From Octopus vulgaris (taxonomy: Eukaryota): DNA of 64,000 nucleotides. The position numbers and the translations under genes are program-made. Below the pieces are notes generated by a model. That model was not told where the DNA came from. It saw only the letters and a list, made by a program, of their open reading frames with translations, and searched no databases. The stretch covers positions 169,136,001-169,200,000 of the forward strand of contig OX597815.1 in assembly GCA_951406725.2 (NCBI GenBank). The letters are read 5' to 3'. Positions within the stretch are counted from its first letter, which is position 1; each line of letters starts with the position of its first letter. Below are positions 22,922 through 55,523 of this stretch, one piece after another.

Positions 22922-24834
22922 GTAAGTATTGATTTATTTTCAGTGTACAGTCTTGTGTACAGTCTTATTGAAATTATGATCATTTGGTCTTCATCACTGA
23001 GATACTGAAAGTAAAGCCAACATTTCTATTTAAATAAATTACTAGGTACCTCTACTGAATTGGCTTTTGTTTATACCTGTTCACCATGAACTCAATATCT
23101 AATCATTACTGGCTTTATTGATCATCGCTATTGCAGTATTTTTTTTCCTTTTTTCATGTATATATAGCTAAAATTATAGTTTTTATAAAAGAGGCTGTGC
23201 TGAAAAGTTCTTGGTTATGGGTTAAAGAAAATACAGGAGGATTAGTTAATTATGATTTTATTCAACATATTCCACTCTCAGATTTATTCATTTATTGCAG
23301 CAGTCCTTCAGTTTTTCTAAGCCCTGTAACAGGACTCAGAAGGTTGGGCCTCCAACCAGGCCTTTTGTTAAACCCTTAAAGCCAGAAGCTTGTCAGCACC
23401 CCTTCGTATACACTCCACCGGATCACTTTTGCCCAGTGGTCATTCAAAATCATTTCTTTCTCAATTTCTTAAATTTCATTCTGTCCATTCTCTTGCATGG
23501 ATGGTTACAAAGATCCAAGCAGCTAACCTAATTTCTTTTCAAACAATGATCTACATTTAATTCCCTCAAGATTTATTTCATAATGTATTAAAACTCATCA
23601 TAAACTGATTTAAAAATAATAGTTTTTCATTTTACTTCCCCCCCCCCCCCCCACATATAAAAGGATTTTTGTTCTGTGTTCGGCTCTTCTAAACATAAAA
23701 GCCTTTTACCGAATTTCATTGGAATGCATTAAATAATATATTTTTATTTGAATTATTAAAGATCTACTACTGCAGTGAGCTGGCAGAATCATTTAGCCTG
23801 CTGGACAAAATACTTTTTTAGGCATTTCTAACAGTAATATAGCCTCTATGGTTACTCTGCCAGAAATAAAAGCTAATTCTCCTTCAAATTACACTATCAT
23901 CATTTAACATCTGCTTTCCATGCTGGCATGGGTTGGACAGTTTGACAGAAGCTGGCCAGCCAGAGAACTGTACCAGGCTCCAATTGTCTGTTTTGACATG
24001 GTTTCTGTGACTTGACCCCCCCCCCATGCCAACCATTTAACAGAGTGTAGTGGGTGCTTTTTATGTGGCACCAGCACTTTTTTCTTTAACAAAAAAAGGG
24101 TGGACACGTTCAACAGTATAGTCGTGGTTGGAATGTTTTAAATCCTGGATATATTCAATCTATTTATGATTCCTCACAATAATATGAAATGTTGCGATCA
24201 TATCTTTGGTTTTCCTGCATAAGACAAATGATACACTAATCATTTTAATTATTCTCTCTTAATTAGGCACATTCTTAACATGGTTAAACTATTTATTGCA
24301 TACTAAACTTTATATTTATGAGTCAAATGCATTATTTGCATGCTTTAAAGTAAAAACAAGTAACACTAGTAAGCAAGAAATGCTTATATCTCTACAGCTG
24401 TTTCAGTGGGTCGCTTTTTACTTGTAGTCTTTAAGGATGATTAACAGTACCTTTACTACACATCTTTTCAGTTTCCCAATTTTCTATGTGCAAACAGCTC
24501 TAGAATTATTAGCATATAGTTCACCATCTTCTGGCCTTTTATTGACATCTGTTATTGTTTAATCATGAAGTTTCAGTAGCTGTCTCAACTTCATGGTTCA
24601 AATCCAACTACAAGCTCTGCATTGTATTTTGGAGCTGGGTACATTATTTGTTTCACTTGAAACCATACATGGGCAACTGTTTTTCAAGTAACAGGCCATC
24701 CTATTAAAAAGCATTCAAGGTAATTTTCCATTTAGGCATGCCATTCAGTAAGTCCTGCAAGCCACAAGTTGCCCGTGGTTTAACTTCATGTATTTTATGT
24801 TGAAATGGTTGGCACTAGTTTTTCAGAAGTTTCT

Positions 24835-32140: not shown

Positions 32141-33037
32141 TGCAGAAGCTGATTCTTGTTGCTGTTGTTGACGGCTTTATGTTTAGGCTGAGGTATAAGT
32201 TAAATTTGGAGCTTAAATGTAGTCTTTAAGCTATAGTTTTATTTCCCTTTGCAATCCCATAAGCCTGATTGGCATAATAAACTGTCTACTGTTCACTTGT
32301 ATTTTATATCATATTTTTGATATTTACCAAGCACTTTTCAGTACTGCAAACAATCATTAGTGAAATAAAACAAAAAAAAAAAAAAATGCATACCGACTTG
32401 ATGTGTGTCATGTCACAGGCCATGTGCATATTGAACATTTGTGAATTTGGTTATAAAATCTACATCGCTCTGAATCTCTTGTTTGAATTTTGATAAATCT
32501 TTTACTGTTCAACATGAAGCCCATTTAACATGTAGTTACTGTAATCCCTTGCCATATAGCGGTTTGTTATTTAAGCTTACAGTGATTCCTCCGTGGTGTT
32601 GTTTTGCAGTTATGATAAAAATAAATATATAAAAAAAAATATATGCAGTACTGTTTCTACTTTGCAGATTTTCACCTATCACGGGGTTTTGAAATGTAAT
32701 ACCTGTGATAGTCAAGGGATTATTGTACTCAGATATTCACATTTCAAATGTCAATTTTTTTTGAGACCCTGTATGTGTGTATAAAAAGTATTGGTTAGCT
32801 CAGAGCTATGGTAAAAGACACTTGCCTAAGCTGTTCACAATGGTTATTAACATTAATTTAATTGCATCTTTGACATTAAGCAGGTCATAGAAATGGCAAA
32901 ATATTTGTGTCAGGTTAAGGAAATTCTAGTTCTTCCATGATGTAATTGCTAATATCTATTGTGTTTAAGTGAAATTTTTTAAACATGCAATCAATATTAG
33001 ACATTTTTTTATTTATTTTATTTATTTATTTTTTCAG

Positions 33038-33141
33038 ACAGTTTGGTGGAAGATGAAGAGGAGTTTGGAACAGTAATCCAAACATCTAATGTGTCGTTTG
33101 AGCAACTTTTAAAAGATTGGAAGCGTGACAGGAAACATTGA
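33038..33141 (+). CDS. PPRC1: PGC-1-like terminal coding exon 12 (DSLVEDEEEF...SFEQLLKDWKRDRKH*)
   Basis: TTTCAG acceptor; FEQLLK corresponds to the FDSLLK tail of vertebrate PGC-1; TGA at 33139-33141. Confidence 0.93.
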
Positions 33142-35665
33142 CAACATTAGGGTTTAAGAAAAATTTATAATTAGTAAAACAGTGGAAAAGCCAGCTCATG
33201 ATTTTTTTTTTTTTCTTTTTTTCTGAGGAGACTAGTATGGTATTTTCCTTGACCAAAATGTATGGACTTAATGAATTATCTAGTATTAAACATACTTTGT
33301 GGAAATGGAGTAAAAATTATTCATACCTCAAATTGAAAAACAGTTAAAATGCAAACAAAATAAAGTAGTAAGACTACTGAAACCTTCCTAAAATTGTCAT
33401 TTTGTTTTTAATTAGCATATAATTATGATTTGGAAATTAGAAAATTTGTAAATTGCCTTGTTATTTGTATTTAAAATGGTTACTGTCTGGGTGTATGTTC
33501 AAGAGATAAAAGTTCTCTTTTATCAGCCTTAATATTTGAAATATGTATAAAAGAATCCATGTGTAATGGGTTAAGTTTTGTTTACATGTTTTTTTTTTTT
33601 TTACCATGTGGTTCTGGTTATGTCAACTGTTTCTTTCTTAGATTTCTTTTTATGGTGATTTATATGAAGTTGTGATCAGTCTTGTTTTTTGTTTTTTTTT
33701 ATGTTCTTTTATGTTTGCATTTGTTTGTTAAAATTTACTCCAGTTAACTACAAAGCTCAATAGAATTTATTTTAAAAACTTCGTGGGTTTCTCTTTTTTT
33801 TTTTTTGTTTAATTTTTTAATTTTTACATTGAGTATGAAAAATGATGGATACAGAAATTAGCAGAAAAAATATATATAATTGGTTTGATAAAGAAAGGCA
33901 GGTGTAATTTGAGATGGCAGATCTAATAGGACATTTAATTTTGTGAAACTCAAAAAAAAATACCATTGTTAATGAATTTGGCAGGTTTAATGGTATTTTT
34001 AAGTTACTTCCCCTCTCCGGTGCTCTGTCAGTGATTGCAGCAATCTGGGGAGATAAGAGGCTCTGTCATGGAATGGAAATGAATTGTTGAGCTGAATGTT
34101 TAAATTCTCGGGGCCAGGGCCATTTTGCTTTGCTGGTGCTCTTGGGAAAGGCATGAACGTCACATTTCTCAACTTTATGTTCTTTGAAACCAGTGGGGTT
34201 GATTAGCTATTTAATAAATTCTAACTTTGGCTTTATCACAATTGCAGGAAATAGATATTAATTGTATATGTGCAGGTTCTAATTTCAATTTTTTCTTAGT
34301 CTTTTTTTCTTCTTTGATCAAATAATTCTGCGTTCCTTTTAGAAAGGTTTTCTGCTAAAATTCTAAAGTTGAAATGTTTCCGGACATGACTATTTTACAT
34401 GAAATATGCTTTTAAATTGCTTGTACTTTCAAACTATCTGGTAGTATATAAAGTTAGTATTGTGACCTTGTTAATAATTTGATTTATTTGCAGTTTCCTT
34501 ATTAATTTTTATAACCTCATTGTCCTTTCTGAAAAGAGATATTTTTCTTATGCTAGTAATTATGAAAGAAAAAAATTTTAGACCAAATGCTAAGCCTGTT
34601 TTATTTGATCAAATGTGAACTTGAGCTCCTCTTCTTTCTGTGATAACCTTGTGTATCATGGCTGTGAACATAAAACATTACTTAACATCTATATCGGTTT
34701 CACATAACATCTTGGAAAAAGATGTGTCTACTCTTAATTTTAAATACTTAGTGTAGTTTGAAGGATTAGAGATAGATGGTGTAAAGTTACATTTAGATTT
34801 TTCTCAATATGAATAACTAGTTAGAGCATTTCTCAAAACTAATTTGAGAATATAAATGTTTTGAAAATTCTTTTGTAGTTGTCCTCAGTATTTGAATGTT
34901 AATTCAGTTGAGCTTTGTTTTGAATTTATAGCTTGTTTAACAAGTAACAATGTCCATAATGGATCAACCCTTAACAGTTGCAAAAGTTTTAAGATTCTCT
35001 TTGCAAGTGTATGTAAGACTTTATAAGGTTTTGCTTATTAACTAAAATATTCAATATTCTACTAAAACATGTAAGCTACATTGGATTTCTTTTTCATGTT
35101 AAGATTATGATTTAAAAAATTTTTTTATACAGAAAATGTTTATTTTTCTATAGTTAATATTCCTTCAAAATGCTATCCAGGTTGCTTCGCTTTTACCGGT
35201 TCAAATTTCTTTCCCAGTTCCTATCATATTTCCATCTTTCAATCATGTTGTCAAATTATTAAAAAATTGCCACTCCGGACAATAATTTCTCTTGGTTTCT
35301 ATTGATATCTCATTCTTTTGTAACTGGCAAGTGTATGCTGCTTGCTTTGTACAAGTTTGTAATGCCCCTTTCTTTTCAAGTTTTTTTTTTTGTCCTCTCC
35401 CTACATTCATATTTCATTCTTTCATATTACCAATTAAGATATAAATGTAAATATAAAGAACCAAACTGGTATCTGAGAAATTATCTTGGATTTTGAACAG
35501 AAATTTTGTCTCTGAATTTGTAAACTGCTTCCTCTGATATAATTACATAAAAACAACAACTGTTTAAAGTTTTAATTACTATTTAATTTAAAGCTAATTG
35601 CATAAAATTTGTCTTCAACTTCTCCCATTTTGTTATTTTGTAAATAAACATTGAAAAAATTTTTT
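33142..35665 (+). other. Probable ~2.5-kb 3' UTR of the PGC-1-like gene
   Basis: U-rich stretch with no recognisable transposon, ending at TGTA-AATAAA (AATAAA 35643-35648); repeats resume shortly after. The end position is approximate. Confidence 0.6.
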
Positions 35666-36266
35666 TAAGTAAACTGAGTCATTTTATTGATCTTTAAAAG
35701 TGTGTTTCAGTCTGGAAACTTGGCTGAATAATTTTTTTATAGCTAAATTTTTTCAGGTTAGAAAGTAGCTTAGGCTAGTTGCTATCTGTTGTTCCTATGT
35801 GAATGATGCAAATTTTCAATAAATCTTCATTGTAATGTCCACCTTCCCATCCTTGCCCATGGGTTGGGCAGATTTTGGCTGATATTGTATAGCCAGAAGC
35901 TCTTCCTCTCGCTACCCTTGACATGTTTTGAACTAAGATATTCTCTTATGTATTGAACAATGAGCAGCCTAGATGTAGAGCCTTTTTTCTTTCTTTTTTC
36001 AAAGAGCATGCAACATGTCAGGTGGCCCTTGCATGATTTCGTGATTGACTGCAAACATATGACACCAGCTGTATTGATAGTGAGGTTGATTGTTTAGTCA
36101 GTGAACACATGTAAAAATGAGAAAATTGCAAACCTTTACATGCACACACATGTATATATAATCATAATTTAACATCCGTTGTCCATGCAGGCATGGACTG
36201 GGCAGTTAGACCAAGGCTGGTAAGTTGAGTGGCTGAACCAGATTTGGCATGGTATGTTGAAGGTAA

Positions 36267-36485
36267 GGTGGCGAGCTGGCATAACCGTTAGCATGCCGGG
36301 CGAAATGCGTAGCCGTATTTCGTCTGCTGTTACTTTCTGAGCTCAAATTCCGCCGAGGTCGACTTTACCATTCATTCTTTCGGGGGTCGATAAATTAAGT
36401 ACCAGTTATGTACTGGGGTCGATGTAATCGACTTAATCTGTTTGTCCCCTCTGTGTTTAGCTCCTTGTTGGTAGTAAAGAAATAG
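36267..36485 (+). mobile_element. tRNA-derived SINE with Nin/Deu-like central domain (representative copy)
   Basis: A/B-box-like head then GTCGACTTT..TTCATyCTTTCGGGGTCGATAAATTAAGTACCAG. Other copies at ~1325-1540, 2006-2222, 29800-30010, 41198-41835 and 54780-55012. Confidence 0.8.
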
Positions 36486-37506
36486 GTATGTTAAAGCTTA
36501 AGTTGGAAAAGCTCATGAAGCAGGAATGTGTTAAAGTAAATATAATCATAGTTTTATATGGATGTTCTGTTAGAACAAGCTATTCTGCAGTAGATACCAT
36601 GAGAGAAACTTGTATTGGCTTATGATGCAAAATGCACTCTTGACTATATCACTTGTGTTTATCATAATTTCTCCATTTGCTCTAGTTCTACATACAGTAG
36701 TAACCAAACTACTTGACTAGATGATGACAATCTGTGTTAGGCATTCTCAACCATTTTTTTGTCTATAGATTCCTTTGATTGTTGTTTTATTCTGGGAACA
36801 CCCCTAGCCATTTGATGGGTCTTAAGTTTCATAGAAACTTCCTTTGAAATTCCGATTGTTTTTCACACATTAACTTGGATTGGTTGACCTTTGTAAAATG
36901 TTACAGAAAGAAACCTCGCTGTTTCTTGCAATACATAAACCTAAAACGAAATCTTTCAAGGCCCCTTGAAATACTATTGTGGATCCCCAATTTACTATTC
37001 TCCTGTGTGGACCTCTAAAAATCTTATGGATCCCAGTTGAGAACCACTAATCTATATGAAGCTCTAAACTCAATAGTTGCAGTTACACATTTAATTGTAC
37101 ATACAAGATATACCCTGTATATATATATACAGACACACATATTTATATATGAGCACATCCAAGACTGTCCTTTTCCATACTAGCATATCAACTATGGAGA
37201 ATTCTTAATTCTTGAGATTATCTCCCCTTGTCATGTGGAGCTGTTATCTATTGCCTTTTAGTAATTGTGATTCTCTATAGCAGAGATAATTTTAATACAT
37301 CGAGAATTTATGTGGTATCGTATTTGTTTATGTATTTAAATATATATATATATATATATATGGCGTTAGGAAGGGCATCCAGCTGTAGAAACTCTGCCAG
37401 ATCAAGACTGGAGCCTGGTGCAGCCATCTGGTTCACTAGCCCTCAGTCAAAATTGTCCAACCCATGCTAGCAAGGAAAGCAGACGTTAAATGATGATGAT
37501 GATACA

Positions 37507-37886
37507 CTAGCAGTATAGCCCGGTGTTGCTTGGGTTTTGATTTCTTTTCAACCCTTTAGAATTGGAATTTTTGAAAAGTAAAAATTTTGCATTATGTAGC
37601 TTGTTATTCTCTTTAAGTGAACATTTTTCTGGTTGAAATACACTGAAAAATGGCGACACAGCAGCAAAAAAAGTAGGGATTTTCATAGAAAAAAAAAAAG
37701 CACCTTTTTGATGTAAATAATTTTTGGTCTTAACATGGTCCGATTTGAATTTTTTCTTCTATGGAATGAAGAGCAAACCTTCTATCATACTCTCAATTTT
37801 GGTCAACTTGCGCTGCAGGGTCTCGGAGGAGATAGTGTTAGTTGAAGGCTGCCAATCACAGACAACTTCAACTTTACATATATAGA
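37507..37886 (-). mobile_element. Non-autonomous Helitron (related 3' end)
   Basis: TC...CCCAAGCAACACCGGGCTATACTGCTAG ends on the minus strand. Confidence 0.72.
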
Positions 37887-38942
37887 TTAGTGACCTTAGA
37901 CTCTAGGCCAGAAGGATGCTAAGAAATAAACCAATCTGGAAAAGAAGGATTTGGAAGCTTAAGGACCCTTCATATGGTCAGAGATTTAGTGACATCCTAA
38001 TTGAGAAATTCAGTGAAAGAGAGGAGGAGGTACAGATTTGTGACATAGAGAGCAACTGAGGGGACAGCTTGCTGAGTACCACAGAGCAAATGTGTAACTG
38101 GTGTAAAGTCCCATTCAGACCTAGGGTGGTGGTGGAACAATGTGGTAGACAGCCATTAGAGCTAAGAAACAGGCCTGGAAGAATGTGGGTAGCAGGGAAC
38201 TGTACCAGATTGCCAGAAGGGATGCTAGGAGACAAGCATGTCTAGCCAAGGGAGAAGCATGAAAGAAGTTTGCCTATGTTCAGCGATGTGAAGACCTTTG
38301 GGGATGTGCTGTGCTTGAGAGGACCCATCAATCCACATGCACCCGTGCTGGAGGTATGTAAAGAACACCTTTTAAGTGTTGGACCTCACAGGCAAAGTGG
38401 CTGAGTTCCTTTCAAGCATTGGGCCTCATGGAAGCAAAATGGCTGAGCTCCTTTTGAGTGTTGGGCCTCAGAGGCAATGACTGAAACCTTTGGCATTATG
38501 TTGTGCTTGAGAAGACCCATCAAACTAAGCAAGATTACAGTCGTGACAGATACTGGTGTCATGCAAATGGGCACCCATGCTGGTGGCACGTAGAAGCACC
38601 CATTACAGTCTTGGAGTCGTTGGTATTAGGAAGGGCGTCCATCTGAAGAAAACTTTGCCAGTATGGACAATGGACGTTAAATGATGATGATATATATATA
38701 TATATATAGGGAAAGTTTACGAAAAAGACGAAGACAGGTGGTGTACAAAGCAGACAGATGTATTAGTATAACGCTCAGGAATAGAAAAAGTCTTTTGTTT
38801 CGAGCCTACGCCCTTCCACAGAAAGGTACACAGAAAAAACAAGGAGAGAAAAAAAATGTGTGTAGTGGCTAACGATCTATCATGGGGAAAGTAATACTTT
38901 GGTCATAGAATCCTCTCATATACACGTACACACACACACAAG

Positions 38943-38996
38943 ATAAAACAAGAGTTTCGGATGCTGAGGTGGAAATCCACGCCACCATCTATTCAT
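38943..38996 (-). ncRNA. Degenerate sister hammerhead copy
   Basis: AUGAAUA (2 changes from CUGANGA), a homologous 31-nt stem II and GAAACUC; stems I and III have decayed. Confidence 0.6.
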
Positions 38997-39097
38997 ATTA
39001 CATTTAAAGGTAAATTCCTCTATCTACATAATATTCTTTCTTTTGTTATCTTACTGTTTTTATCAATATATATATATAATATGTGACAATTAGTTGG

Positions 39098-39172
39098 TTG
39101 TCATAATAAAACTCAGAGTTTCGGATGCCGAGGCTGAAGTCTGCTCCGGCACCTCATCAGTTATTAAGACAA
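39098..39172 (-). ncRNA. Type I hammerhead ribozyme with intact catalytic core
   Basis: Minus strand reads UUGUCUUAAUAA-CUGAUGA-[31-nt stem-loop II]-GAAA-CUCUGAG-UU-UUAUUAUGACAA. Stem I pairs 11 of 12 bp, stem III is the near-palindromic ACUC-U-GAGU, and the cleavage triplet is GUU. Confidence 0.8.
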
Positions 39173-39301
39173 ATGGTATGAGAAAAAAACCCATTGAATA
39201 GAAGGAAATTACTCCAATAGGCATGGGGAAAGTAATACTTTGTTCATAGAATCCTCATATACACACATACACGTACGCACACACACATGTATGTATATAT
39301 A

Positions 39302-39659
39302 TCTATATATACGTTTGTGTAACAGATATTTTGGTTGGATTATATAGTCATTGGTGTTACATTACTTTCTATATTCCGTAACTGTCACAATATACTTTTC
39401 TTTGCCTGAATTTTTTTTTTTTTGTGTGTGTGTGTGTGTGTGTGTGGGGGGGGGGGTAATCAGTTGATTAGATTGATCCCCAGTACACAACTGATACTTA
39501 ATTTGTTGACCCCGAAAGGATGAAAGGCTAAGTTGATCTCGACAGAATGTGAAGATAGACGGGCATAATATACAAACATTTCTCATGACACCAGTACACT
39601 GTTTACAGATGCTTACATTTTTTTAATGTTTTCCGTGAATTTTTCACGGGTCCAGCTAG
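39302..39659 (+). mobile_element. Helitron-like element with nested SINE fragment
   Basis: A|TC start, CCGTGAATTTTTCACGG hairpin ~10 nt before CTAG|T. Confidence 0.55.
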
Positions 39660-39949
39660 TATATAAGTATTGTGGTTGTTTATTCCCAGGTCAGCGCTGA
39701 TCTTGCACACCTATGATCAAGAGCATTCCAAACGTGACCATCTTGTTTTTTGTTTTTATGATTATACCATATATCTAGTACTGCATTACTCATTAAACTG
39801 CAAATTATTTTTTTGTTTTTTTTTTAATGATAGCTAGGTGTGGTGTGAAAATTATATCCTTTTACCTGTTTCAGTCATTAGAGTGCAGTCATGCTGGAGC
39901 ACCGCCTTGAGAAATTTTAGTTGATTGAGGAATTTTAGTCAATTATTAC

Positions 39950-39987
<38 letters not shown>

Positions 39988-40842
39988 TTAATCGACCCCA
40001 GTACTTATTTTTGCTGAACTGCTAAGTTACAAAGATGTAAACACACCAACACTAGTTATTGATTGGTGTGGGTATATACATGTGGGGGAACACACACACA
40101 CACATATATTATATATATATGATGGGCTTCTTTCAGTTTCCATCTTCCAAATCCACTAATAAGGCTTTGGCTGGCCTGAGGCTATTGTAGTGAGACTGAA
40201 CCCATGTGGTTGGGAAGCCAGCTTCTTACCACAGAACCATGTATGCACCTATTTCTCAATTATTTTTCAGCAGGTCAAGCAACCATATAGTGACTACTTC
40301 ATTGGCACAAATAACTATCAGTCTCGCTCTGAGTGGATTTCATTCTGTGTCAATGAAAGAAACAAGTATCATTATTGAGATACTTATATGGAAGAAGTGG
40401 CAATGTAGCAAATAACTAAATACTAAACAGGATTTAGTTTCCTCCTTTAAGACCAGAGATTCTAAAATGATGCTCATGATATACCTTAAGGTAACGGACA
40501 AGGATTCTGGATTATTTTTCCAGTTTTAATTTTTGAGGCTTTGGTCGGCCTGAGGCTATTGTAGAAGACTAAGGTGCCATGTAGTGAGACTGAACCAAAT
40601 AGTATTGAGGTGCACTCAGGTATTTAAAAATATATAAGTTAAAGCTTTAGAAGAGCTATACTATTACTAATGTTTGTATGCTTTGAAAAACAAAATTATA
40701 TGTGAAATTATGATTAATAAAATAAGGGTGTTGTTATATTTGGTGGGTGGTCACATTTTGCTAATTCAACCCATGCACTGGCAAGGTCACAGGATGTGTA
40801 ATGAAAGGACTTAGACAAAGACACTAAAATAATAACAATGCC

Positions 40843-41197
40843 AAGAGCACTCATAGAGCGCAAACCTCCACCAAGGCAACAACAAAGTCCTCTCAATGAT
40901 TAGCTGGGGATGATTTTAAAAACGAGAATATCTGAAATAAACTTGACTGCTTTCACAAATGAAAATGAGAAAACTGAAAATGAACCTGACCACTCTTAAA
41001 AATTAAAACCGGAAAAATAATCCTGAATTCTTGTCCGGTACTAGATTGATCACAAAAATTAACCAGTTCATGCCAGTCATGAGGCCAAACATCTCTGAAA
41101 GTTTCATCCGAATCTATCGAATGGTTCTTGAGATATCTTGTCCACAGACAAACAAACACAACTGAAAACAATATCTTTGCTAATGTGGAGGTAATAA
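40843..41197 (-). mobile_element. Helentron/DINE-like (HINE) non-autonomous element
   Basis: Minus strand starts TTATTACCTCCAC, has a GTTT/GTCT microsatellite, and ends GTGGAGGT plus hairpin GCGCTCTATGAGTGC (subterminal inverted repeat plus 3' stem). Confidence 0.6.
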
Positions 41198-42204
41198 TCC
41201 TTTCTGCTAAAGGAACAAAGCCTGAAATTCGGAGGAAGGGAAGCAGTTGATTACATCGAGTTCAGTGTTTCACTGGTACTTAATTTATTGACCCCGAAAG
41301 GAATTTGAACTCAGAATGTAGTGATAGGTGAAATACCTATTTCTTTATTACCCACAAGGGGCTAAACAGAGAGGACAAACAAACAGATTAAGTCGATTAT
41401 ATTGACCCCAGTGCATAACTGGTACTTATTTAATCGACCCCGAAAGGATGAAAGGCAAAGTTGACCTCGGCGGAATTTGAACTCAGAACGTAGCGGCAGA
41501 CAAAATACCGCTAAGCATGCTAACAATACTGCCAGCTTGCCACCTTAATAATAATAATTCTTTCTACTGAATGCACAAGGCCTGAAATTTTTGGGGAGGA
41601 TGAAGTCTATTACATCAACTCCAGTGTTCCACTGGTACTTAATTTATTGACTCTGAAAGGATGAAAGGCAAAGTCGACCTCAGCAGAATTTGAACTCAGA
41701 ATGTAGCAATGGGCAAAATACCTCTAAGCATTTTGTCCAGCGTGCTAACAATACTGCCAGCTCATCATAATAATAATCCTATCTACCAAAGGCACAAGGC
41801 CTGAAATTTGTGGAGAGAATAATAATAATAATAAAGCTGAAGTGAAGATTAAGTATGTATAGAATATGACCATCCCCATGTATAACAATATCTGTTTCAA
41901 CATGATTTCACATCAAGAATCTTGCAGAACAATTACATAAACCTAAAAAATAAGGGTGGCTATTTGCAATACAAATGTTTTTCACTGTTTTTCTATATAT
42001 CAAAAGTGGCAAAATTTCATCTATGTGGCTTGTTGTGAGTACATACCATTGACAAGGCCCAATGAGGCCAAAATGCATTTGGCATTCTTGTATAGTTGCT
42101 GTTGGGATGATTTTTGTCTCCCTTTCACATATATATATATATATATATATCTGATTGTTGCCAGAGCAACAAGCTGGCCTCTGTGCTGATGGCACCATTC
42201 AAGC

Positions 42205-42549
42205 ATGATCATACCTGCATCACTTTACTGGCACTTGTGCTGGTGGCATGTGAAAAAACATTTAAGCAAGGTCATTGCCAGTGTCGCTGGACTGGCTCCT
42301 GTGCAGGTGGCACATAAAGAGCCCCATTTGAGCGTGGCCACTGCCAGTACTACCTGACTAGCCCTTGTGCCGGTGGCACGTAAAACCATCCACTACACTC
42401 TCGGAGTGGTTGGCGTTAGGAAGGGAATCCAGCTGTAGAAACTCTGCCAGATCAGATTGGAATCTGGTGCAGCCATCTGGTTTGCCAGATCTCAGTCAAA
42501 TCGTCCAACCCATGCTAGCACGGAAAGCAGACGTTAAACGATGATGATA
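42205..42549 (+). mobile_element. LINE(RTE)-3'-end-derived repeat with (GAT)n tail (representative copy)
   Basis: GGTTGGCGTTAGGAAGGGAATCCAGC...CCAACCCATGCTAGC...GACGTTAAACGATGATGA. More than 15 copies on both strands (e.g. 758-1051, 1592-1990, 12545-12860, 37360-37503, 54015-54238, 62982-63190). Confidence 0.75.
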
Positions 42550-43016
42550 TATATATATTATTTGTTTTTAAACACAGTATGTTCATAAGGGATGCTATGT
42601 CTGGACATATACTTAAGTAAATTTACCTTTTAATGATGTATTTACTTTAACTCTTTTGTATTCAGATTACTGCCGAATGTAATGCTTATTTATTCACATT
42701 GTTTGGAATTAATCCTGCATTATCTTGTAGCTTTGAGATTTCTGTGATGTGGGGAATATCATTGTGTAGGTATAAGAGGCTAGATTTGGCTGGTTTCAAC
42801 ATAAAGGAAGTAGAACATTTAGGCCAAATATGGCCAGTTTGCATACATATATTTGGCAATAAATCTTTAGTTAAATATATTGAATGAGAATATTATATAC
42901 TGAATTTATATCGAGTGCTCTATTGTATCAAAGTATTAATACTATTAAAGTATTTATATATTTAATACGAGCGATTATATATATTTTATAATATATTATT
43001 ATTAATATATAATATA

Positions 43017-43400
43017 CTAGCAGTATCGCCCGGCGTTGCTCGGGTTTGTAAGGGAAATAACTATAAGCATTTTTAGAGATTTATAGCCAAAAAATAGCAA
43101 AAAATATGTATTAAAAATGGAAAAAAAATGATGGTAAATTTTTTAAAAAACGTTGACTCATTGTAGACATTTTTAGAGAGTTACTTCCCTTATATAATAG
43201 CGAAAAATGCATTAAAATGGAAAAAAATGATGGTAAATTATTTTTAAAATCGTAGACGCGCGCTAATACCCAGAAGGGCTCGATATGAATCACGACTATA
43301 AGATACCCGGTTTTGGTTAAACTGCACCGCAAAATGTGGTAGTAGTTAAGAATCTAAATCGTAGGAGACAGACACACAACTTCACTTTTATATATAAAGA
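43017..43400 (-). mobile_element. Non-autonomous Helitron
   Basis: 5' TC and 3' CTAG ends, subterminal hairpin CCCGAGCAACGCCGGG, inserted between A and T; internal tandem duplication. Confidence 0.8.
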
Positions 43401-44659
43401 TATGCATACATACACATATGCATACTTTGAAGAGTATGTGGTGTTACTTAATTGTACTGTTATTTAATACTCAGTGTGAAATTGATTGATAAAATCGGGC
43501 GAAATGGAGCTATAATACCGTATACTTTAATATATCTACTCTATTGACATATATATGTAGGTGCATGTTTTTTTTCCTGACTCATGAATTCTTAGACAAC
43601 TTTCATATGTATATGCGTGTGAATGTTTACATTCTGTCATTCCATATATAAAAAATAGCAGAGCTGTAGACGGTGATGTTTGTTGTATTTCCCTGTAAAC
43701 AAATAGTCCAGGAGCTCTGCACTTTTGACGAGAAGTAGAATAAAAACTCTTAACTTGAATGTATCCTTGGAATGGAGACTTGGTTTGAATACTTGCAACA
43801 GAGTTAACTCCCTTAGAAGCATCTTAGAAACTGGGCAATTGATTGAAGCTACTGCCCAAATAGACCATGGCAGGTTAGAAAGAACAGGGACCCAATAAAT
43901 GTGCTATTGTTTATCTGTTATAAGGAATGTTTGCTTACTCACAAAGTTATTCACTCAATATGTCTGTAGATTTTTCTCTGTTTATGTTATGACTTTCTGT
44001 AAAGGGTGGTTTGTCATGTTCACTTTATTACCTCAATAACATTATTGTCATTTCGTTTTTGGATTTGGTTTGCAAGATTCTTTATGTGAGTTGGTGTGTT
44101 GAAGCATATTCTGTTGTGTCTGGGGAGAATCATTTTCTTTTTGTGCCTTATAATTTAACACACTGACCAGTAAAATTTCATTTCAATTAAGAAATGATAG
44201 ATCTGGTATTATATAAATTAGTCCTCAAGTTATGACTGGATATTTCAACCAATTATTAATAGCATTTCAGAAAAAGAAACGAGAAAAAAAAAAGAAGATA
44301 AAGAAAAAATTTCCCTTTGATTTTGATTTCAAATAATCATTACAGCAATCAACAAATCTGCTAGTAAGAATATTGTAAAACTTTAATTCTTGTTAATTTG
44401 TCTTGTACAGAAAGAGAGAGATTCTGGTTGATAATGGAAAGATATTTGGACATGCTCAGCTGCAGAACTGATGTAATCTGGCACCACTGGACATTGGCAG
44501 TTGCGACACAAGGAGATAAAATGGATTGTTGGTTTCGTAGCTGAAAGGCTAGGCTCTACAGAAGTGCTGCTACCAAAGCATTTGCTGCAAAAATAACTCA
44601 CAGATAACTGTTTTATCACATCAAATGGTGAGGGGGAATCTTCAGCTGCACATCCCTGG

Positions 44660-46458
44660 CAACTTATAAATCAAAACCTTTATTTATACAATTTATAATA
44701 ACGCTATGGGAGGAAAAGGAAAACATAATTTTTTTTTTTTTTTAAATAAAAAGAATACAAATTTGGATAACAATGAAATAGTGTGTAAAAACTTTAATGC
44801 AAACACACAAAACACATTAAAAAAATCACACACAGCTGTCAGTGAGTATTCTGAAGAAGTGATGATGCAGCAAGAGGGAAGCACACTGCTCCAATGTTTC
44901 AGCCTCCAGCAGTTGTCACTCTTAACAAAGCTAACCAAACGGTATTAGCAGCATCACCAAGGCATTATTATTATTAATTTTTTTCATACATTTCCTCAAG
45001 TAAAATAAAATAAAAATAGAAGGGGAATTTTTAATGGTTTCATTTGAAATAATGACTATTGCTATATATTTTGTTCATAGTTTTAATGTTATTAGGAATA
45101 TTTCCTGCCAATCTGTAGCAAAAGTCATATAAATTCCTTGACCTGTTTGAGATGTCATGTTTTATCAACAGTCATTTAACTTGTAAAACATGGAAAAGTT
45201 TTTATCATTTTTATGGTTTTTCTCTTCTAATCCAACAGGTTGCTGTTGGTTAGGGCAAGGTTAAACCCTCCCGCCCAAATATACCAACATTATTGAAGGT
45301 TTTGGTATGTCATCCAACTAGAAAAATATGGCATATTTGTAGTGCATATATCCTGCTAATCTGCTGGCAGAAATATTAGAATTAACAAAATAGCACAAAT
45401 ATCAAGTTTTTATAGATGTTTCAGAGATAGAATTTCAGTCCTTTATTAGTATAATAATAATAATAATAATAATGATAATAATGGTAGTAATAATAATAAT
45501 AATAAATAAAAATAAAATAAAACAAGCTGCCTAAAGGCCCTTTCATTATTGTTAACTGCTTTGTGACAGTCAAATATGTTATACAAGTAATCTCAAACTG
45601 GAAAAGGAAATGCCATAATCATTTTCCAAATTATGAAAAGAAAATATTACAATGTTAATTACTGCAGCCATTGAAGTTTTATCTTCAAAGTAGTCTGCTA
45701 TCAGAAAAACCAAGTGGAAAATAAAAGCAAACAGACAACTAACAAAGACAAACAATAACAACTATAATCCACAACCCTTTTCATGTGTGTTTAAGACAGG
45801 GAAAAGGAGAGAGAGAGGGGGGGGAGAGGATGAAGCATCAGTTCATTTTCTCATTTTCTTTTGAAGAACAAAAATAAAAGTGGATAAACTGTAAATATTA
45901 AAACTAATAAAAAACAAAAATGAAAACAAACTAGGTTAGTTTATCTTGTTATTTTATAAATGGTTTGATTGACTAACAGAAGCTAAATAAAATGATTATT
46001 CCAGAATAACTTGATAACTTGAAATTATTTTGTAACAGCATCAGGGTTTTATACAAGTTGGAAAGAGAACCATATTAAACATTGGTTTAAGAACCAATAT
46101 TAAACATTGATTTTAAATTCTTATTTGTAAACATAAAAAGCAAAACTAGCCAGATTATTGCTCTCTTAGAATTAGATGAAATGATATAAATTGCCATTAC
46201 TGAAGAATTAATTGTCTAGTGATTGCAACAACAGGTAGGCCAAAAAATACTGATTGAGTTAATCAAGTTAATATTTTAGGAATGAGATGGGTGGTTGGGG
46301 AAAATATACATAATGGCAACCAACAGCAGTTTTCCTGAGTGAAGTACACAACCAGATTCAACCCTCTAAGGAATTGGCATTTATCATTTGTTGTCGTTAA
46401 CTAAAATATAAGCAACAATGACAAGGAGTTAAGTATTAGTAATTATAAACACCAGCAA

Positions 46459-47479: not shown

Positions 47480-47682
47480 TCAAAAGTAGTCTGATCGCTC
47501 TCTTGCTTCTCGATGTCCAGCAAGTACTTGAGCAAATTTCTTTTTATCAATAGACAACCGAATTGCTTGGACACTGCGAAACAATTGGTCTGAAGATATA
47601 TCCTCTGGCAATTTGGTAAGGAACTGGGCAAGATGGATGAAATCCATTTCAAGAAGAAGATTTTGGTAGAGGTGTAAGATCC
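47480..47682 (-). CDS. TBC1D14: TBC1D12/14-like terminal coding exon ([29 protein letters not shown]...RSDYF*)
   Basis: [16 protein letters not shown] motif; TGA at 47482-47480. Confidence 0.94.
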
Positions 47683-47769
47683 CTGAAATAATTTAAAAAT
47701 ACAGTTGGATTAAAATGAAAATAAAGATTTGAAAACTGAAATATTATGTACTATCACAGTCCTTGATAA

Positions 47770-48250
47770 TAATATAATAATAATGAACTTATTGTATACA
47801 ATGCTCAGATGCACCACAACTTGTCAAAAGTGGGTATAAAGCATATGCAGTAATGTACAGATGTCTGGAAAGTGAACAGTGTGAGTCAGATACATGCTTG
47901 CATGTGTATGGAGGGGAGAAAATCAGGTGTAGTGTTGGTGAATCTCGGGAAGCATGGAAGTTTTGAAGGACGCAGTGCTCTGACAACTAACAACTGATGC
48001 TGGCAGTTTGTTCCATGCTTCAGCAACTCTTAGCGTGAAAAAATGTTTCCGAAAGTCATGGGAGCTGTGTTGTTTTCTGACTTTGTAAACATGTCCATGG
48101 GTGTTAGACTGATGGAGTTTGAAAAGGTGCTCAGATTTATTGTTTGTAAGATGGTTAATAATTTTATGGGTGTCGTCAAGTCAGCTGCTAGACGTCGGAC
48201 TTACAATGTATCCATGCCCAGGGAAGTAAGGCGTTCAAAATATGGCAAAT
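47770..48250 (-). mobile_element. CR1/L2-like LINE 3' fragment
   Basis: Minus strand encodes ERLTSLGMDTL-VRRL and HFFTLRVAEAWNKLPASVV, with a TTA-rich tail. Confidence 0.7.
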
Positions 48251-48696
48251 GATAATAACAAATAAAAACTTTTGAGAAAGAAAAGTACAATATATACTGG
48301 AGGTTTTAAATTTACAACAGATTGTTTGAAGTCACACTAAATTCCAGTGTTAGCATTAGTATATTTTAATAAAAGGTAATATTTATTACAGAGATGTACT
48401 TGCATAGCAAGTGACCTGATCTGAGATCGTGTGCTGAAACGAAAACAATTGCAGCGTGGAAGGTGTTTATAAGCCATTTAAGAAACACACAAAAACCATT
48501 AGATTCAGCACAGAATTTTGTCAGTGTCAGTCATAGGTGTATATTTAGATAAAAGAGGAACAAAGAGAAATTAAGAGAATTCTAATGAAGTGATTAGACC
48601 ATGTCACAAAGATAAACTGGATCCTGACTTCAAAAAACTATTCCCATACACCATACTGGTCTATATCTTGATTTACACAAAGTGAAAATTACTCAC

Positions 48697-48800
48697 CCAA
48701 GGCAGTTCTGAATAAAAATTCTTCTCCATCTCGGCAAAAAACATCCCAAACTCTGCATGCAACATCAAGGGGTAAGGATCTGCTAAATATTGTAAATATC
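48697..48800 (-). CDS. TBC1D14: TBC1D12/14-like exon ([35 protein letters not shown])
   Basis: Highly conserved TBC1D12/14 segment; canonical splice sites. Confidence 0.96.
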
Positions 48801-48832
48801 CTAGAAAAAGAAAAAAAAATATATATATTATA

Positions 48833-50054
48833 TTGTGTTGGCAAGTAAGTAATTTTTTTGAATGACTTTTTTCAATGTTGTGATTTTTTTTTTTTGACTT
48901 TTGATAGCCGTTACTTTTAGCTTACTTTAGAAGCAAATTGCAAGTAATTTTGTTTACAGCTGTTAGTTCAGAGTCAATTTTAACACAGAGTGCAAAAATG
49001 AACATTTTCACCATATTTTGCTTTTTTATTTCTGTAAAAGCAAGAAAGCTGCTGAGGCTCACAAAGAGATATATGAAGTTTATGGTGTTGATTGCTTAAC
49101 AGAACAGATATGTCAGAAATGGTTTTAAAAATTCCATTCTAGAGATTTTTCACTCAAAGATGACCAACTGAAGTTGATGATGACCAATCAAAACCATAAT
49201 TGAATCTGATTATCATATAACTGTGTGAGAGATTGCAGAGAGGTTAAATGTATCACACACAACAATTAAAAATCACTTAAAACATCTTAGACTCGTTAAG
49301 AAGCTCGATATTTGGGTTCCACATAAATTGAAAGCGATTCACTTAAAATGAATCAATATTTGTGATATGCATCTCAAACACAATGAAAGCGACCTTTTTT
49401 GAAATGAATCATCACAGGTGATGAAAAATGGATTGTCTACAATAACATCAATCGAAAAACGATCCTGGTCCAAGCATAATGAACCAGCACAGACCACAGC
49501 GAAAGCTGAATTGCATCAAAGAAAGGTCATGCTGTCAATTTGGTGGGATTACAAAGGTGTTCTGTATTTTGAGCTGCTTCCAAGGAACCAAACAATCAAT
49601 TCAGATGTTTACTGTTAACAACTAATGAAACTGGAGGAAGCAATCAAAGAAAAATGGTCAGAATTGGCAAATCATAAAGGAATCATGCTTAACCATGACA
49701 ATGCTAGACCACACACGACTTTGCTAACTCATGAAAAATTACTGGAGCTTGTTTGGGAAGCAATGTCACATCCACCATATAGCCCTGATTACCATTTATT
49801 TTGAAGTTTGCAAAATTCTTTGAATGGTAAAACTTTCAATAATGACGATGACCCGAAATCGCACTTGCTTTAGTTTTTGGCTGATAAGGACCAGAAGTTC
49901 TATAAGCGCAGAATCATGAAGTTACCAAAAAGATGGCAAAAGGTCATTGAACAAAATGGAAAATATATAACTGATTAAAGTTCATTCTTTGTATGAAGAA
50001 AAAAGGATTTTTATTTCACACTAAAAAACCAAAATTACTTTCATGCCAACCCAA
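48833..50054 (+). mobile_element. Full-length but decayed mariner transposon (pseudogenised transposase)
   Basis: TIRs TTGTGTTGGCAAGTAAGTAAT / ATTACTTTCATGCCAACCCAA flanked by TA. WVPHKL, ITGDEKW, HDNARPH and YSPD motifs are recognisable among many stops and frameshifts. Confidence 0.92.
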
Positions 50055-52459
50055 TACAACATCATCATTTAATGACCACTTTTCTATGCTTGCGGGTGTC
50101 AGATGGAATTTGTTGATGCAGATTTTCTATGGCTACATGCCCTTCCTGTCACTAACCTTCACCTGTTTTGAAGCAAGGTGATATTTTCCCATAACTAGAT
50201 ATGTTTTTCACAAAAGAGTGGAAAACAAACAACTTTGCTTGTATGAAATGATGCTTCTTTACAACCATCGTGAGATATCTAAACAAGGGTACACACACAT
50301 CCTTTAAGTTCATTTATGAATAATAAAATAATAATAATAAAATAATAAAAAAATAAATAATAAAATGAATAATAATAATAATATGCATAATAAAATAGGA
50401 TTTTATTATGCCGGATACAGCCTAATGTTATCAACTGACAATAGCAGTTTTCTGGGGTCGACTGATCCATCAGATGTCCATGTACACTACAGACTGTAGT
50501 GTACATCAGAGGAATACAAACTATGATCGTAAGAAAAATGTGATGTGTGGAAATTAAAATATTTATAAATTCCATCCATGGATTATTATTATTATTATTA
50601 TATATATATAGCCAAGGTGTAACACAGTAGGACTGAACCCAAGACCACATGGCTGGGAAGCAAGCTTCTTAACCACACAGCCATGGCTGCCTCTATAACA
50701 ATTTAGAGAAAATTACAATGCTTATGGTCAGTAAAATAGAATTGTAAATATAGTACAACAATGAAAGAAATGTAATTGATAGCAATAAAGAGAATCAAAA
50801 ATTGGATGAATGGAAAACAAGACAGATCCAATTACTCAACAAAAAAGCATTCTGTTGCTGTGTACCAAAGTGAAAGAAATTGGAGACATATAATTATATC
50901 TCAAGACTGAATTTAATCAAAGCCTATTTGTGTTGTGGTTTTAGTTATTACAATAGCAAAGAATGGTGCAAACAGATATTTCTTAGTCTTTAATACAGGG
51001 AAATATCAATATTAACTATTTAAAAAAAATTCCTTACAGGAAAATAAAGCAGTATTCTTTGTTTTCCAAAGGGCTCTATTGAAACGTTAGCATTTTCTTC
51101 TTATGGTACACCAATTCTTTACATTTTTATTATTTTGTATCAGTCATTGGACTGCACTTATGATAGGGTATAGCCTTGAAGGGTTTAGTTGACCAATTCA
51201 ACCTCAGTACATATTTTAAGCCTGGTACTTCTTTTATCAGTTCCTTCTGGCTGAACTGCTAAGTTACAGGGATACAAATAAACTCACACTGGTTACCTAA
51301 GTGATGAGAAGAGACAAATATAAAGCTGCAAACACACAAGACAGACTTCTACAGAGTTTCTGTCAACTAAATTCACTCACAAGGTATTGAACCTGAAACC
51401 ATGTGGTTGCAATGTGAACTTAACCACACAGCCATGTTGACTATTTTTTAAAAACTTTATTGGTATCAAGCTTTAGTTTTAATCAAGTATTTTGCTGTGA
51501 CACTTAAGATTAACTATTATAGAACCTTATAGGTTGTTCACCTTAGGCAGGTGAACAATCTACCAAATTTCTTTATTCTTCATCAGAAATAATTCTGAAT
51601 GTAGAATTATGTTTAATAAGCTTTTGATTCTTTTGTATTTTAACATTTTTATTTTGTAGTTAGCTGAATAATATTTTTTTCTTACTTGGCAGAGACCTTT
51701 CCTCAATACAGCAAAGCAGTGGTCCCCAATCTTTTTTGCATGGACCAAGAATTTAGCACTCATATTATAGGTTCATTTAGCTTGTGGGCTTAATTTATTG
51801 GTGCTTGCAAAAACTTTGACTTAGACAAGTGTGAAAAAGAGGCACAGACCAGAGACATAGCCAGGTTCTAAAGTTAGGGGAAGGGAGCACATAAAAAAAA
51901 CGGTGCATTGACACATATCAAATCATTTTTAACTCATTTCTCTTATATCACATGAAATATTTCATTAGTTATAATATACGTAATTGTATTCTACATTCAT
52001 TAATTTCCTGTTTCAGTAACAATGTTATAATGTAAGAAACTTACAACTACGATATAAGTAACAAAAGAATATAAAAAAATAATGGTTGTAATGGTGCCAA
52101 TTTTGAAAAATGTGCTTGGGAGGAGCAGTTCCTCATTTTGCTTCCCTATTAGCTACGCCACAGACAGAAGTGGTAATTTTTCAAAATAAAACACCCTGTA
52201 GACTGCAATAATCAATAAAATAGAAATAAAATAAAAAAAATTGATTCTTTTTGTGCAACCTGGTACCAAATGATCCAAGGTTTAGTTGTTAAGGATCCCT
52301 GCTAAAAAGCATCTTACATTGAATGCTTCGATTGCTTTCCTAACATGTTGACAATTTCAGTATCAATTAAACTTTATATAGTTGGTGGCAGCATATGCTT
52401 CTGGTGACACATGGAAATATAAAGGTAAACAAAGATCTCTTTAAATAACGGTAACTTAC

Positions 52460-52569
52460 CAATCTATAATGTAAATGTCGGGTGTCAAGTTCTGTCTTCC
52501 AAAATGATGGTGGAGTTGGGGCATATTTTCCAATAGGAACTCATCATAAGTATCAAAATAAGACTTCAT
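52460..52569 (-). CDS. TBC1D14: TBC1D12/14-like exon (MKSYFDTYDEFLLENMPQLHHHFGRQNLTPDIYIID)
   Basis: Matches the LTPDIYLIDW region; TTTAG acceptor, GTAAGT donor. Confidence 0.95.
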
Positions 52570-55394
52570 CTAAAAAAAAAAGGAAAAAAAAAGGAAAATA
52601 GAGAAAAAAAGGGTTAAAGAATATTCACAGAGCAAACATCGAGAATTGTTTGTATTTTGGCACAATAAGGAACAAAAGCAGTCTCTACAAGATATCTCCT
52701 GCCAGGAGGAGATGGTCGTCATAACTGATTTTTGTTGGTTGAATATCAAGACGTATTTAAAACAATTAACTTTATGAAAACTTACCATAATTTTTGGCAT
52801 ACAAGTTAAATTTTTCAGACCAAAATTTACAGCTATAAAAGAGGTAGGTTGACTTATACACCAAAATGACTTTAGAGGACCAAAAATTCCATGTCGAATG
52901 CAGAAAGACTTGGAAAGATAGTGATGATGTTTGAATGTTTACACTACATGTTCACACTATATACTATGCTGACTTGTATTCCAGAAAATACAGTATACAT
53001 AGATAATAAGAATCAAGGAGCTGAAATGCCAAGAAAGATGCATTTAATGGCCTCTATGAAAAAGGCATTGACTAAATGAATGTCTATTAGGTTCAATGAT
53101 GAGAATACAGTACTTGATCAACTGAGAGCTATGTGGCTGAATATTCCACAGACATAAGTACCCTTATTGTAATCTTCAGGCAGAACCAATGTAACAGGGC
53201 CAGTCATATCAGACTTAAACATTCTACTTGTTTTATATTCGAACTGGCTAGATTTGACCTCTCACACCTACTTTACAATGTCATTCTAAAAGTAAACAAT
53301 CATATTAATAAAATCTCGAAGCTATAAGAGAATGTATGATTAATTCAAAAACAATAACTAAGCATTACATTTGATAGAGTAATCTGAATGTTAAAGGGTT
53401 AAATTATAGGTACAGTCTATCTAATGGGATCCAGTACAGTTTGCTCTACTCAGTTTCACTCAGAAGGATTGGGCTGACCTGATACTATGGCAAAAGACAT
53501 TTGCCCAAGAGGAGATGCAGTGAGATCAAACTTGGATGCCTTGTGATTGTGAAGTGGATTTCTTAACCATTTGGCTAGGCTGCATCCAATGGTGTCGATA
53601 GAAATGCAAACATTAAGGAAAGAATGACAAGTGGAAAGAGGTAAAAAGTATTATTGCAAGCTGAAGAGACTCTCAAGAGTCTATAGGTAGATATAGTAGC
53701 AGTAAAGAAGATGGAAAATGTAATAGGAGTTCAGGACTGGATATTTTTGTGGTGGACCGTTGGAGAAATGAGACCCATGAGGTGGAGTGGATGCTGCAGT
53801 AAGTGTTGCTCGCCATTCTTTGTGGCAATGCCATCACAGTCATAACTGCAGAGAATGGCTGAGCACACCATTTGCTCTGGGATATGTGGCCCATTGCTCC
53901 TGCCTCCATCTTCTGTTGCTTTACCCAACCCCACCTTTTTTTTCCTTTTCTTTCTTTATCTTTTTTTTTTCCTGCTGCTCCCCTTGGTGAAGAGGATTGG
54001 CCTGCAAGAGTCCTGTGCTGGTGCCACATAAAACATACTTGTGCCAATGTCATGTAATAGCACTTGTGTGGTACCATGTAAAAGTACCCAACACACTCTG
54101 TAAAGTGGTTGGCATTAGGAAAGGCATCCAGCCATAGAAACCATGTCAAATCAGATTGGAGCCTGGTGCAGCTTTTCAGCTCTGGTGAAACCATCCAACC
54201 CATGCCAACATGGACAACGGATGTTAAATGATGATGATAATAATATAAAAAAAAAAGTGAAGAATAGATAATTAAATCAAGTGCCTGTTTTCGTTATGCT
54301 AGTAATGGGCAACAGTACTCTATTCCATTCTGATATGTCAGTACTTTATAAAATGGAAGTAACTGTAAAACATTTTTTTCTCCATAGAGAAAACTAAATT
54401 TCATTGATACAGTTGTTTTTTTTTCTATGTTGACTCAATGTTTCTAGTCTAATATCTGTAGAGAATGATTCTTGGAGGGATAATTCTCAGTCAATACAGA
54501 GAGAAATGCAAGAGTGATTTTTGAGATCTCTTTTGGCCAAAAATATTTACTGACTCTCACACAACACAGCAGTTAGCCTGCCTTGAAAAATCTAAAACAT
54601 ACTCACTTGTAGGACAATCACTACTGACTTTCAGTAATGGACAATTAGAGACAAAGAAAGCATCAAGGGGAAGAAAAACACACAAATAAACAAATAAAAT
54701 TTTTTTTTTTTATTATTAAAAGAAACAAAAAGGTGGTGAGATAGCAGAATCATTAGCATGCCAGATAAAATATTTAGTGAAGGTGGCGAACTGGCAGAAA
54801 CATTAGCATGCCGGGCGAAATGCTTAGCGGTATTTCGTCTGCCGCTACATTCTGTGTTCGAATTCTACCGAGCTTGACTTTGCCTTTTATCCTTTCGGGG
54901 TCAATTAAATAAGTACTAGTTAAGCACTGGGGTCGATATAATTGACTTAATCTGTTTGTCTGTCCTTGTTTGTCCCCTCTGTGTATAGCCCCTTGTGAGC
55001 AGTAAAGAAATAAGATAAAATATTTAGTAGCATTTCATCCAACTTTATGCAGTGAGTTAAAATTCTGCTGAGGTTGACTTTGTCTTTCATCAATAAAAAT
55101 AAATCATCGTTTAATGTCCACTTTCCATGCTAGCATGGGTTGGACAATTTGACTGAGTACTGGCGAACCAGATGGCTACACCAGGCTCCAATCTGATCTG
55201 GCAGAGTTTCTACAGTTTTTTATGTGCCACCTGTACAGGAGCCAGTCCAGCAGCACTGGCAACGACCTTCGAGCAAACATCTTTTCAGAGTCTGTAAAAT
55301 AAATACCAGTTGAACATTGGGGTCAATGTAATCAACTAGTACTCTCCCCCAGTTGTAAAGGAATTTACAAAAAAAAAAAATTTTTTTTACTCAC

Positions 55395-55523
55395 CATTCC
55401 TTCATCAACACGGAAGAAAGCAACCTGGCAGGGACCATTCAAAAGATTTGCAAAACAGATAAACGCATCAGCCACCTCCATGTTCAACAGCAACACAGCT
55501 GCCAAGAAAGACATTCCTTGAAC
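55395..55523 (-). CDS. TBC1D14: TBC1D12/14-like exon with glutamine finger ([43 protein letters not shown])
   Basis: YxQ motif formed across the splice junction; GTGAGT donor. Confidence 0.96.

Follow-up and report, generated by a model that had tools for sequence, protein, structure and literature searches.

A hammerhead motif between two convergent octopus genes probably derives from a truncated Hydra-clade Penelope-like element

Introduction

The closest described counterparts of the locus studied here are the hammerheads of Hydra-clade Penelope-like elements (PLEs), which are already published and include one from Octopus bimaculoides, Hydra-1_Obim (PMC8557442). The Hydra-clade passages of that source characterise the elements by an RWK motif, a change of DKG to DKT, a CxCX5C linker, CxxC and CxH motifs and no CCHH motif, and describe them as generally shorter than 3 kb, inserted in (TA)n and equipped with a canonical hammerhead (PMC8557442). 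Counted by eye, File S2 of the same source holds 26 Hydra hammerhead rows, all of them with U4; 17 have a 4-bp palindrome with a 1-nt loop, five read ACUC-N-GAGU and ten have U17. The function of PLE hammerheads is stated there to be unclear.

Minimal hammerheads of metazoan PLEs form a second point of comparison, and the in vitro results given in PMC4209133 have them silent as monomers and weak as dimers. As that account describes them, they occur in repeats that flank a reverse transcriptase (RT) open reading frame (ORF) and lie about 3 kb from each other, as solo copies and as close inverted pairs; they have a long helix II, a palindromic helix III and a dimer-type architecture, and they fall into many subfamilies with covariation. 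The octopus family is alike in each of these respects. It differs in that the extra nucleotide, which lies between A9 and G10.1 on the 5' side in the hammerheads of PMC4209133, lies on the 3' side here, and in the longer helix I of the window motif (6 bp, a mismatch and 5 bp).

Two further systems are less similar. Metazoan non-LTR retrozymes (PMC7229834; bioRxiv 10.64898/2026.07.22.740005) share with this locus a type I hammerhead in low-GC repeated DNA; unlike the elements outlined in PMC7229834, the locus is not a 150-450 bp tandem repeat, has no second complete hammerhead and stems from a parent that would be autonomous. The intron hammerheads of vertebrate RECK and C10orf118 likewise lie near a host gene; they differ in that conservation across species, a place within transcripts and activity as monomers are on record for them (PMC3088659). 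This copy lies in a 64-kb stretch of the Octopus vulgaris genome, referred to as the window.

Results and Discussion

Reading the letters directly, we found a type I hammerhead layout on the minus strand at 39172-39098, where a sequence-only reading of the same DNA had placed one (Table 1). The conserved core was complete, as that reading had it: CUGAUGA and GAAA provide C3 U4 G5 A6 N7 G8 A9 and G12 A13 A14, A15.1 pairs with U16.1, and H17 is a U, whose position sets the predicted cut. Stem I came to the same count on re-reading. Stem II, put at about 9 bp, is indeed long but consists of eight contiguous pairs, two of them G.U, and a 2-bp distal piece; stem III is the palindrome that had been described, but a monomer closes only 3 bp of it. 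Helix II has one supernumerary C at its base, which can either stay unpaired before G12 (-18.9 kcal/mol) or give way to two G-C pairs followed by a bulge (-18.1 kcal/mol). In the window copy an A-to-G change at 39152, which 4 of 26 copies have, narrows the energy gap between the canonical G10.1-C11.1 junction and the more stable shifted one to 0.8 kcal/mol, against 3.4 in the family majority.

Table 1. Coordinates and strands of features in the window
Feature	Position	Strand	Remarks
Type I hammerhead motif, PLE lineage A	39098..39172	-	sequence, folding, covariation, 95 bits
Helix I	39172-39161 / 39109-39098	-	pairs 11/12, one U.U
Core CUGAUGA	39160-39154	-	
Helix II	39153-39123	-	
G12 A13 A14 A15.1 (GAAA)	39122-39119	-	
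Palindromic helix III, ACUC-U-GAGU	39119-39111	-	
U17	39110	-	predicted cut 39110/39109
5'-truncated 3' end of probable Hydra-clade PLE (pseudo-LTR remnant), lineage A	39066..39311	-	81-90% to ORF-bearing copies
(TA)n tract, end of lineage A copy	39066..39078	.	second PLE ends there from opposite side
3' tail of second probable Hydra PLE, lineage B type	38994..39078	+	80% over 96 nt to L112
Inverted truncated lineage B piece, broken hammerhead	38939..39003	-	40.6 bits; 91% over 57 nt to L112
60-nt lineage A 3' UTR fragment without hammerhead	38881..38940	-	87%
Rab-GAP TBC gene exons	47481-55526	-	PF00566

Within the 64-kb window the bare core pattern was not above chance, with eight matches (four of them at the motif site) against 8.54 expected. 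The check by covariance model that the sequence-only reading had proposed came back empty when run with Rfam: no hammerhead model matched the window at the gathering score or at E<=10, and at both thresholds the Rfam matches were microsatellite-driven noise from miRNA models. Our own covariance model, whose alignment includes the window copy itself, gave the motif its 95 bits and otherwise matched only the broken hammerhead at 38939-39003. The motif is nevertheless real and belongs to a repeat family; we base this on the family copies, with 128 exact genome matches to a pattern of the core and the helix II ends against none in the control, and on covariation, and not on the bare core pattern.

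Covariation was evaluated in 29 hand-picked natural copies drawn from two lineages, A and B, and intermediates, leaving distal helix I out of the pair count because the lineages are offset there by one column. Pairing held in 87% of 584 cells, with 37 two-sided changes, and none of 500 shuffles was as high; controls in which the pairing was slid reached at most 51%. By helix, 96% (I), 81% (II) and 95% (III) of cells were paired, and the swaps comprised A-U/G-C and U-A/A-U in helix I and C-G/U-A in helix II. The number of pairs with two-sided changes (five) was not above shuffles (354 of 500). Covariation thus backs three helices around the core, with helix I open, in related sequences with few independent events, and it appears to reflect a few changes at the level of lineages. 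Since the swaps are lineage-level events, they speak for a fold under selection in the parents, not in the window copy. A merely accidental likeness to a hammerhead would fit the chance-level count of the bare core, the Rfam result and a minimum-energy fold of another shape, but it is refuted by the compensatory changes in helices I and II together with a position and a helix III like those tabulated for Hydra PLE hammerheads (PMC8557442), and we regard it as barely credible.

The family was traced through the genome (2.8 Gb in 227 contigs). A repeat search gave at least 1032 first-look candidates, of which 40 were scored, all at E<1e-22, and a lineage A pattern that did not specify the core matched 407 times against none in the control. 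Similarity to other copies begins at about 39311 and stops at 39066, in a (TA)n tract. Longer copies continue upstream into a TG-rich 3' UTR and then into coding sequence, so that the copies form progressive 5' truncations of an ORF-bearing element. One lineage A copy, L061, is full length, with a hammerhead on each side of the ORF at 3063 bp spacing and (TA)n on both sides; its terminal hammerhead repeats differ at 4 of 94 nt. Its broken frames align in seven main pieces, at 57-78%, to residues 1-707 of an intact 708-aa sister ORF, and one stretch of lineage A protein shares 74% identity with the lineage B ORF. The RT piece of L061 had 7879 candidates; among the 150 listed, 15 lie, judged by eye, in a 717-codon open frame, and these are members of lineage B, the young sister.

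The sister ORF contains RWK, DKT, CxCX5C, CxxC, CxH and YKDD, the latter followed in order by GSYDG and IIY...YVG. RWK and DKT are present both there and in L061, and CxCX5C recurs in a second lineage A copy, L062, its final C being lost in L061. One CCHH-type pattern devised for this analysis found no CCHH motif in the sister ORF. Pfam returned neither an RT nor a GIY-YIG domain for the PLE ORF and the PDB no match; given the blank Pfam result, it is the motifs, and a resemblance to published Hydra proteins judged by eye, that underlie the names RT and GIY-YIG. Homologues of the ORF were numerous (1022 of 7999 scored proteins at E<=1e-20), and none of the 120 listed is named.

These features allow a comparison with the Hydra clade as set out in PMC8557442. 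RWK, DKT, CxCX5C, CxxC/CxH and a single ORF of about 700 aa are common to the octopus family, Hydra-1_Obim and the clade, and the N-terminus of Hydra-1_Obim is visibly homologous, by eye, to that of our ORF. An ORF between hammerhead-bearing direct terminal repeats, together with tandem and inverted truncated copies, is as expected of a PLE. The unit measures 2.58 kb in lineage B and 3.06 kb in lineage A, slightly above 3 kb, and its junctions are (TA)n; both the unit (2.6-3.1 kb) and the (TA)n insertion are alike in the clade, as is a hammerhead near the 3' end with a 4-bp palindromic helix III, a 1-nt loop and, often, U17 (PMC8557442). Hydra-1_Obim differs in its helix sequences, which makes the family of the window a different one, and its entry gives no pLTR, where our family has true terminal repeats and tandem arrays (PMC8557442). 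Relative to the clade as tabulated there, the octopus family further has a longer helix II with one extra nucleotide on the 3' side, thousands of copies, and a young lineage with C4, which occurs in none of the 26 rows. By its motifs and by-eye likeness to published proteins, then, the parent is most probably a Hydra-clade PLE, and the window motif adds one more case to an already published hammerhead class.

A non-autonomous retrozyme monomer, moving through small circular RNA, would also be short and non-coding with a type I hammerhead, and animal retrozymes are argued to derive from PLE terminal repeats (bioRxiv 10.64898/2026.07.22.740005). At the window site, however, there is a single complete hammerhead and no tandem unit, and the copies are 5' truncations of an ORF-bearing element. 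We rejected this candidate because no short tandem with hammerheads in two or more units was found and the family encodes its own ORF with putative RT and endonuclease; it is extremely unlikely.

In the window, the lineage A fragment consists of TG/TA-rich 3' UTR, the hammerhead and a tail of about 30 nt, and tblastn with the PLE ORF recovered no ORF piece anywhere in the 64 kb. In a tree built from 37 of the 107 motif regions and read by clades only, the copy nests in lineage A (98/99). The second PLE lies tail to tail with it across the (TA)n tract, and sister copies show the same kind of (TA)n junction. In all, 38881-39311 comprises three or more Hydra PLE fragments, drawn from both lineages and stacked about a single (TA)n tract of 13 nt. 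The inverted truncated piece among them is typical of PLEs. Its hammerhead has no CUGANGA and a disrupted helix III, and would offer no usable dimer partner.

Copy number, an ORF between two hammerheads, the clade motifs, the (TA)n junction and covariation together support PLE origin. We consider it highly probable that the motif is the terminal-repeat hammerhead of a 245-nt truncated Hydra-clade PLE, likely in neutral decay, that would cut RNA weakly or not at all without a second copy. The first reading was right to place it, with its palindromic helix III, among the Penelope-like type I hammerheads.

The minimum-energy fold predicted for the motif differs from a hammerhead (z -2.86), and relative to the ensemble the hammerhead fold comes at a cost of 4.6-6.5 kcal/mol. 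Helix III is predicted to have 3 bp within one molecule versus 8 bp between two, with -7.9 kcal/mol for the duplex, in line with the earlier expectation that the ribozyme would work as a dimer. A double-hammerhead dimer has a predicted -49.7 kcal/mol versus -44.8 for two monomers and is thus 4.9 more stable; it lies 2.6 above the lowest dimer fold (-52.3), which uses an inactive extension where A13 and A14 pair with U17 and U1.1. These models suggest that the hammerhead fold needs a dimer and that the window motif would be a poor monomer cleaver. A separate prediction places a 10-bp hairpin (GGAGUAAU region) at 39232-39199 on the minus strand, a short way upstream of the hammerhead. Lineages A and B both preserve this stretch, and the hairpin may be a second RNA element in the terminal repeat.

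Given the same origin, the window copy might yet be a competent ribozyme that cuts occasionally, as a monomer or in trans, with no selected function. None of the 11 invariant core letters is lost, helix I lacks only one of its 12 pairs, the palindrome is whole, the change at 39152 favours the canonical junction and the helix III duplex is predicted at -7.9 kcal/mol; thousands of sister copies would be potential partners in trans. The height of the hammerhead fold above the ensemble argues against this, as do the pairing of U17 and U1.1 with A14 and A13 that the lowest dimer fold adopts and the published behaviour of a minimal PLE hammerhead, inactive as monomer and weak as dimer in the assays of PMC4209133. 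We judge such competence fairly unlikely and retain the reading of a decaying PLE fragment.

Decay was evaluated in 25 copies picked by upstream sequence only, after dropping 4 of 29 that did not reach through the motif. Departures from the majority letter of a column numbered 14 of 250 cells in the non-CpG core (5.6%), 33 of 600 in helix I (5.5%) and 18 of 350 in distal helix II (5.1%), and all 11 core letters were intact in 12 of the 25 copies. The core decays as fast as helix I, and copies with an intact core are nothing unusual. The remaining non-CpG columns taken together, tail and indels included, stood at 9.4% versus 5.6% for the core (p=0.059); the window motif has 2 substitutions in 75 nt, against 10 in 114 for its flanks (p=0.13). 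Neither contrast is significant, and both lean towards conservation. As few substitutions occur in 7 of 26 copies, and both of those in the window copy replace a Watson-Crick pair in helix II by G.U. The window copy is therefore no better kept than its sisters: rather than the special hidden element proposed at first, it is one of hundreds of decaying copies with ordinary preservation. A separate divergence count on L002-L030 (core 1.3%, 26 of 34 intact) was rejected as biased because those copies had been found with the motif itself.

The motif lies between two convergent genes. On the minus strand, both exons scanned matched the TBC domain (PF00566, E 1e-6), in a gene that we take to resemble TBC1D12/14. 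The sequence-only reading had the motif in the same orientation as this gene, about 5.5 kb past its poly(A) signal; strand and hexamer hold, with AATAAA at 44684, 5.5 kb upstream of the motif, but that signal is one of nine minus-strand AATAAA hexamers between the TBC stop near 47481 and the motif. The plus-strand gene would read the motif antisense. On that strand the window has a 625-codon exon with no Pfam match (21048-22925) and a last exon at 33040-35650 with a 2.5-kb 3' UTR ending at AATAAA 35643. Contigs from 4 of 23 runs, taken as RNA by guess, were searched over 33000-44700; they were repeat-swamped and uninformative on read-through. One run's contig covers the 3' end of the plus-strand gene to 35627, just before its AATAAA; the sole contig over the motif differs at eight places and is another copy, and no listed contig piece from these repeat-swamped runs joins unique flank to motif.

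Host co-option, in which the ribozyme is kept to cut TBC read-through before it enters the convergent gene, would account for a motif on the strand of the TBC exons, between two convergent genes and slightly less diverged than its flanks. The nine intervening hexamers speak against it, as does the motif's place in a pile of three or more PLE fragments on a (TA)n target. Because the window has no intact partner, preservation is ordinary for the family and the orientation is a one-in-two event, we rate co-option as very unlikely. For the same reasons, and because related minimal PLE hammerheads showed no monomer activity in vitro (PMC4209133), the suggestion that read-through transcripts could be cut here is not supported, and nothing supports a role for the motif in cutting TBC read-through RNA.

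These data allow us to propose a mechanism for the PLE origin. In a tandem transcript of the parent, two hammerheads would pair via the palindromic helix III and cut after GUU, and this cutting would process the precursor RNA of the element. An RNA template with its 3' hammerhead still uncut would then undergo reverse transcription where a (TA)n tract was nicked. Copying that halted after about 245 nt would leave the truncated window copy, which would have neither promoter, ORF nor partner and presumably plays no host role.

By pattern count, sister lineage B is about fifteen times commoner than lineage A, with at least 6100 terminal-repeat matches in the genome. Eight intact lineage B ORFs (708 aa) differ by a median of 0.9%, and one locus is a tandem array of 2.58-kb units with a period of 2579-2585 bp. 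Example loci are L088 (G000:C1:57207500-57217499) and L090-L096. With position 4 left open, the lineage B pattern gave 3293 exact matches; all 100 listed have C in place of the invariant core U, and U4 is kept in only 77 of the 3293. Since C4-G5 is a CpG, some of these U4 matches would be back-mutations. The lineage retains G12-A15.1 and the palindrome in 4879 matches and mostly has U before GAAA. In the tree, lineage B has a U4 copy as its first branch, and a single clade (99/96), which also includes U4 copies, takes in every C4 copy, for which reason C4 is likely the derived state. In vitro, U4C has considerably lower activity in the account of PMC3088659, where the viroid was still infectious, and other mutants of the CUGA turn had low activity in the mutational scan data of PMC9901934. 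In the open literature, with subscription papers and Repbase/Dfam outside its scope, our search found no report of lineage B or of a U4C PLE hammerhead.

Counted with overlapping loci included, almost all lineage B 3' ends fall at unit positions 81-94 or 156-161, with none at the predicted cut after 51 and no pile-up of 5' ends at position 52. The end of the window copy is a junction of the 81-94 class. Across L069-L129, the (TA)n ends had two preferred positions, one about 30-43 nt and the other about 105-110 nt beyond the predicted cut, with none at the cut itself, and inverted pairs in lineage B often use one end class per side. Both inverted and tandem PLE copies occur among the sister loci. 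A young C4 lineage with ends 30-110 nt beyond the predicted cut suggests that PLEs can spread with a weakened ribozyme. We tentatively extend this to a reading that we hold somewhat less probable than its opposite, in which the window copy would be a fossil of an intact-core stage and the lineage would be losing its ribozyme, cleavage being dispensable or even a brake for PLE retrotransposition. If this is true, a single genome offers a natural pair, the old U4 and the young C4 ribozyme, for testing the purpose of PLE hammerheads, and their comparison would test directly whether PLE spread needs cleavage. The flagged site itself matters little; the interest lies mostly in the surrounding family and its U4C sister lineage.

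Two minor observations concern duplications. At L066, two identical hammerheads with intact cores and a better GUC triplet lie in direct orientation on the minus strand, 699 bp apart (2137 and 2836), where SINE-like and microsatellite DNA is locally duplicated; judging from their arrangement, they could form a dimer in cis. Elsewhere in the window, 3239-3729 is a perfect 243-bp direct duplication (2.0 copies, 100%) with repeat-like sequence, which may be a recent event or an assembly artefact.
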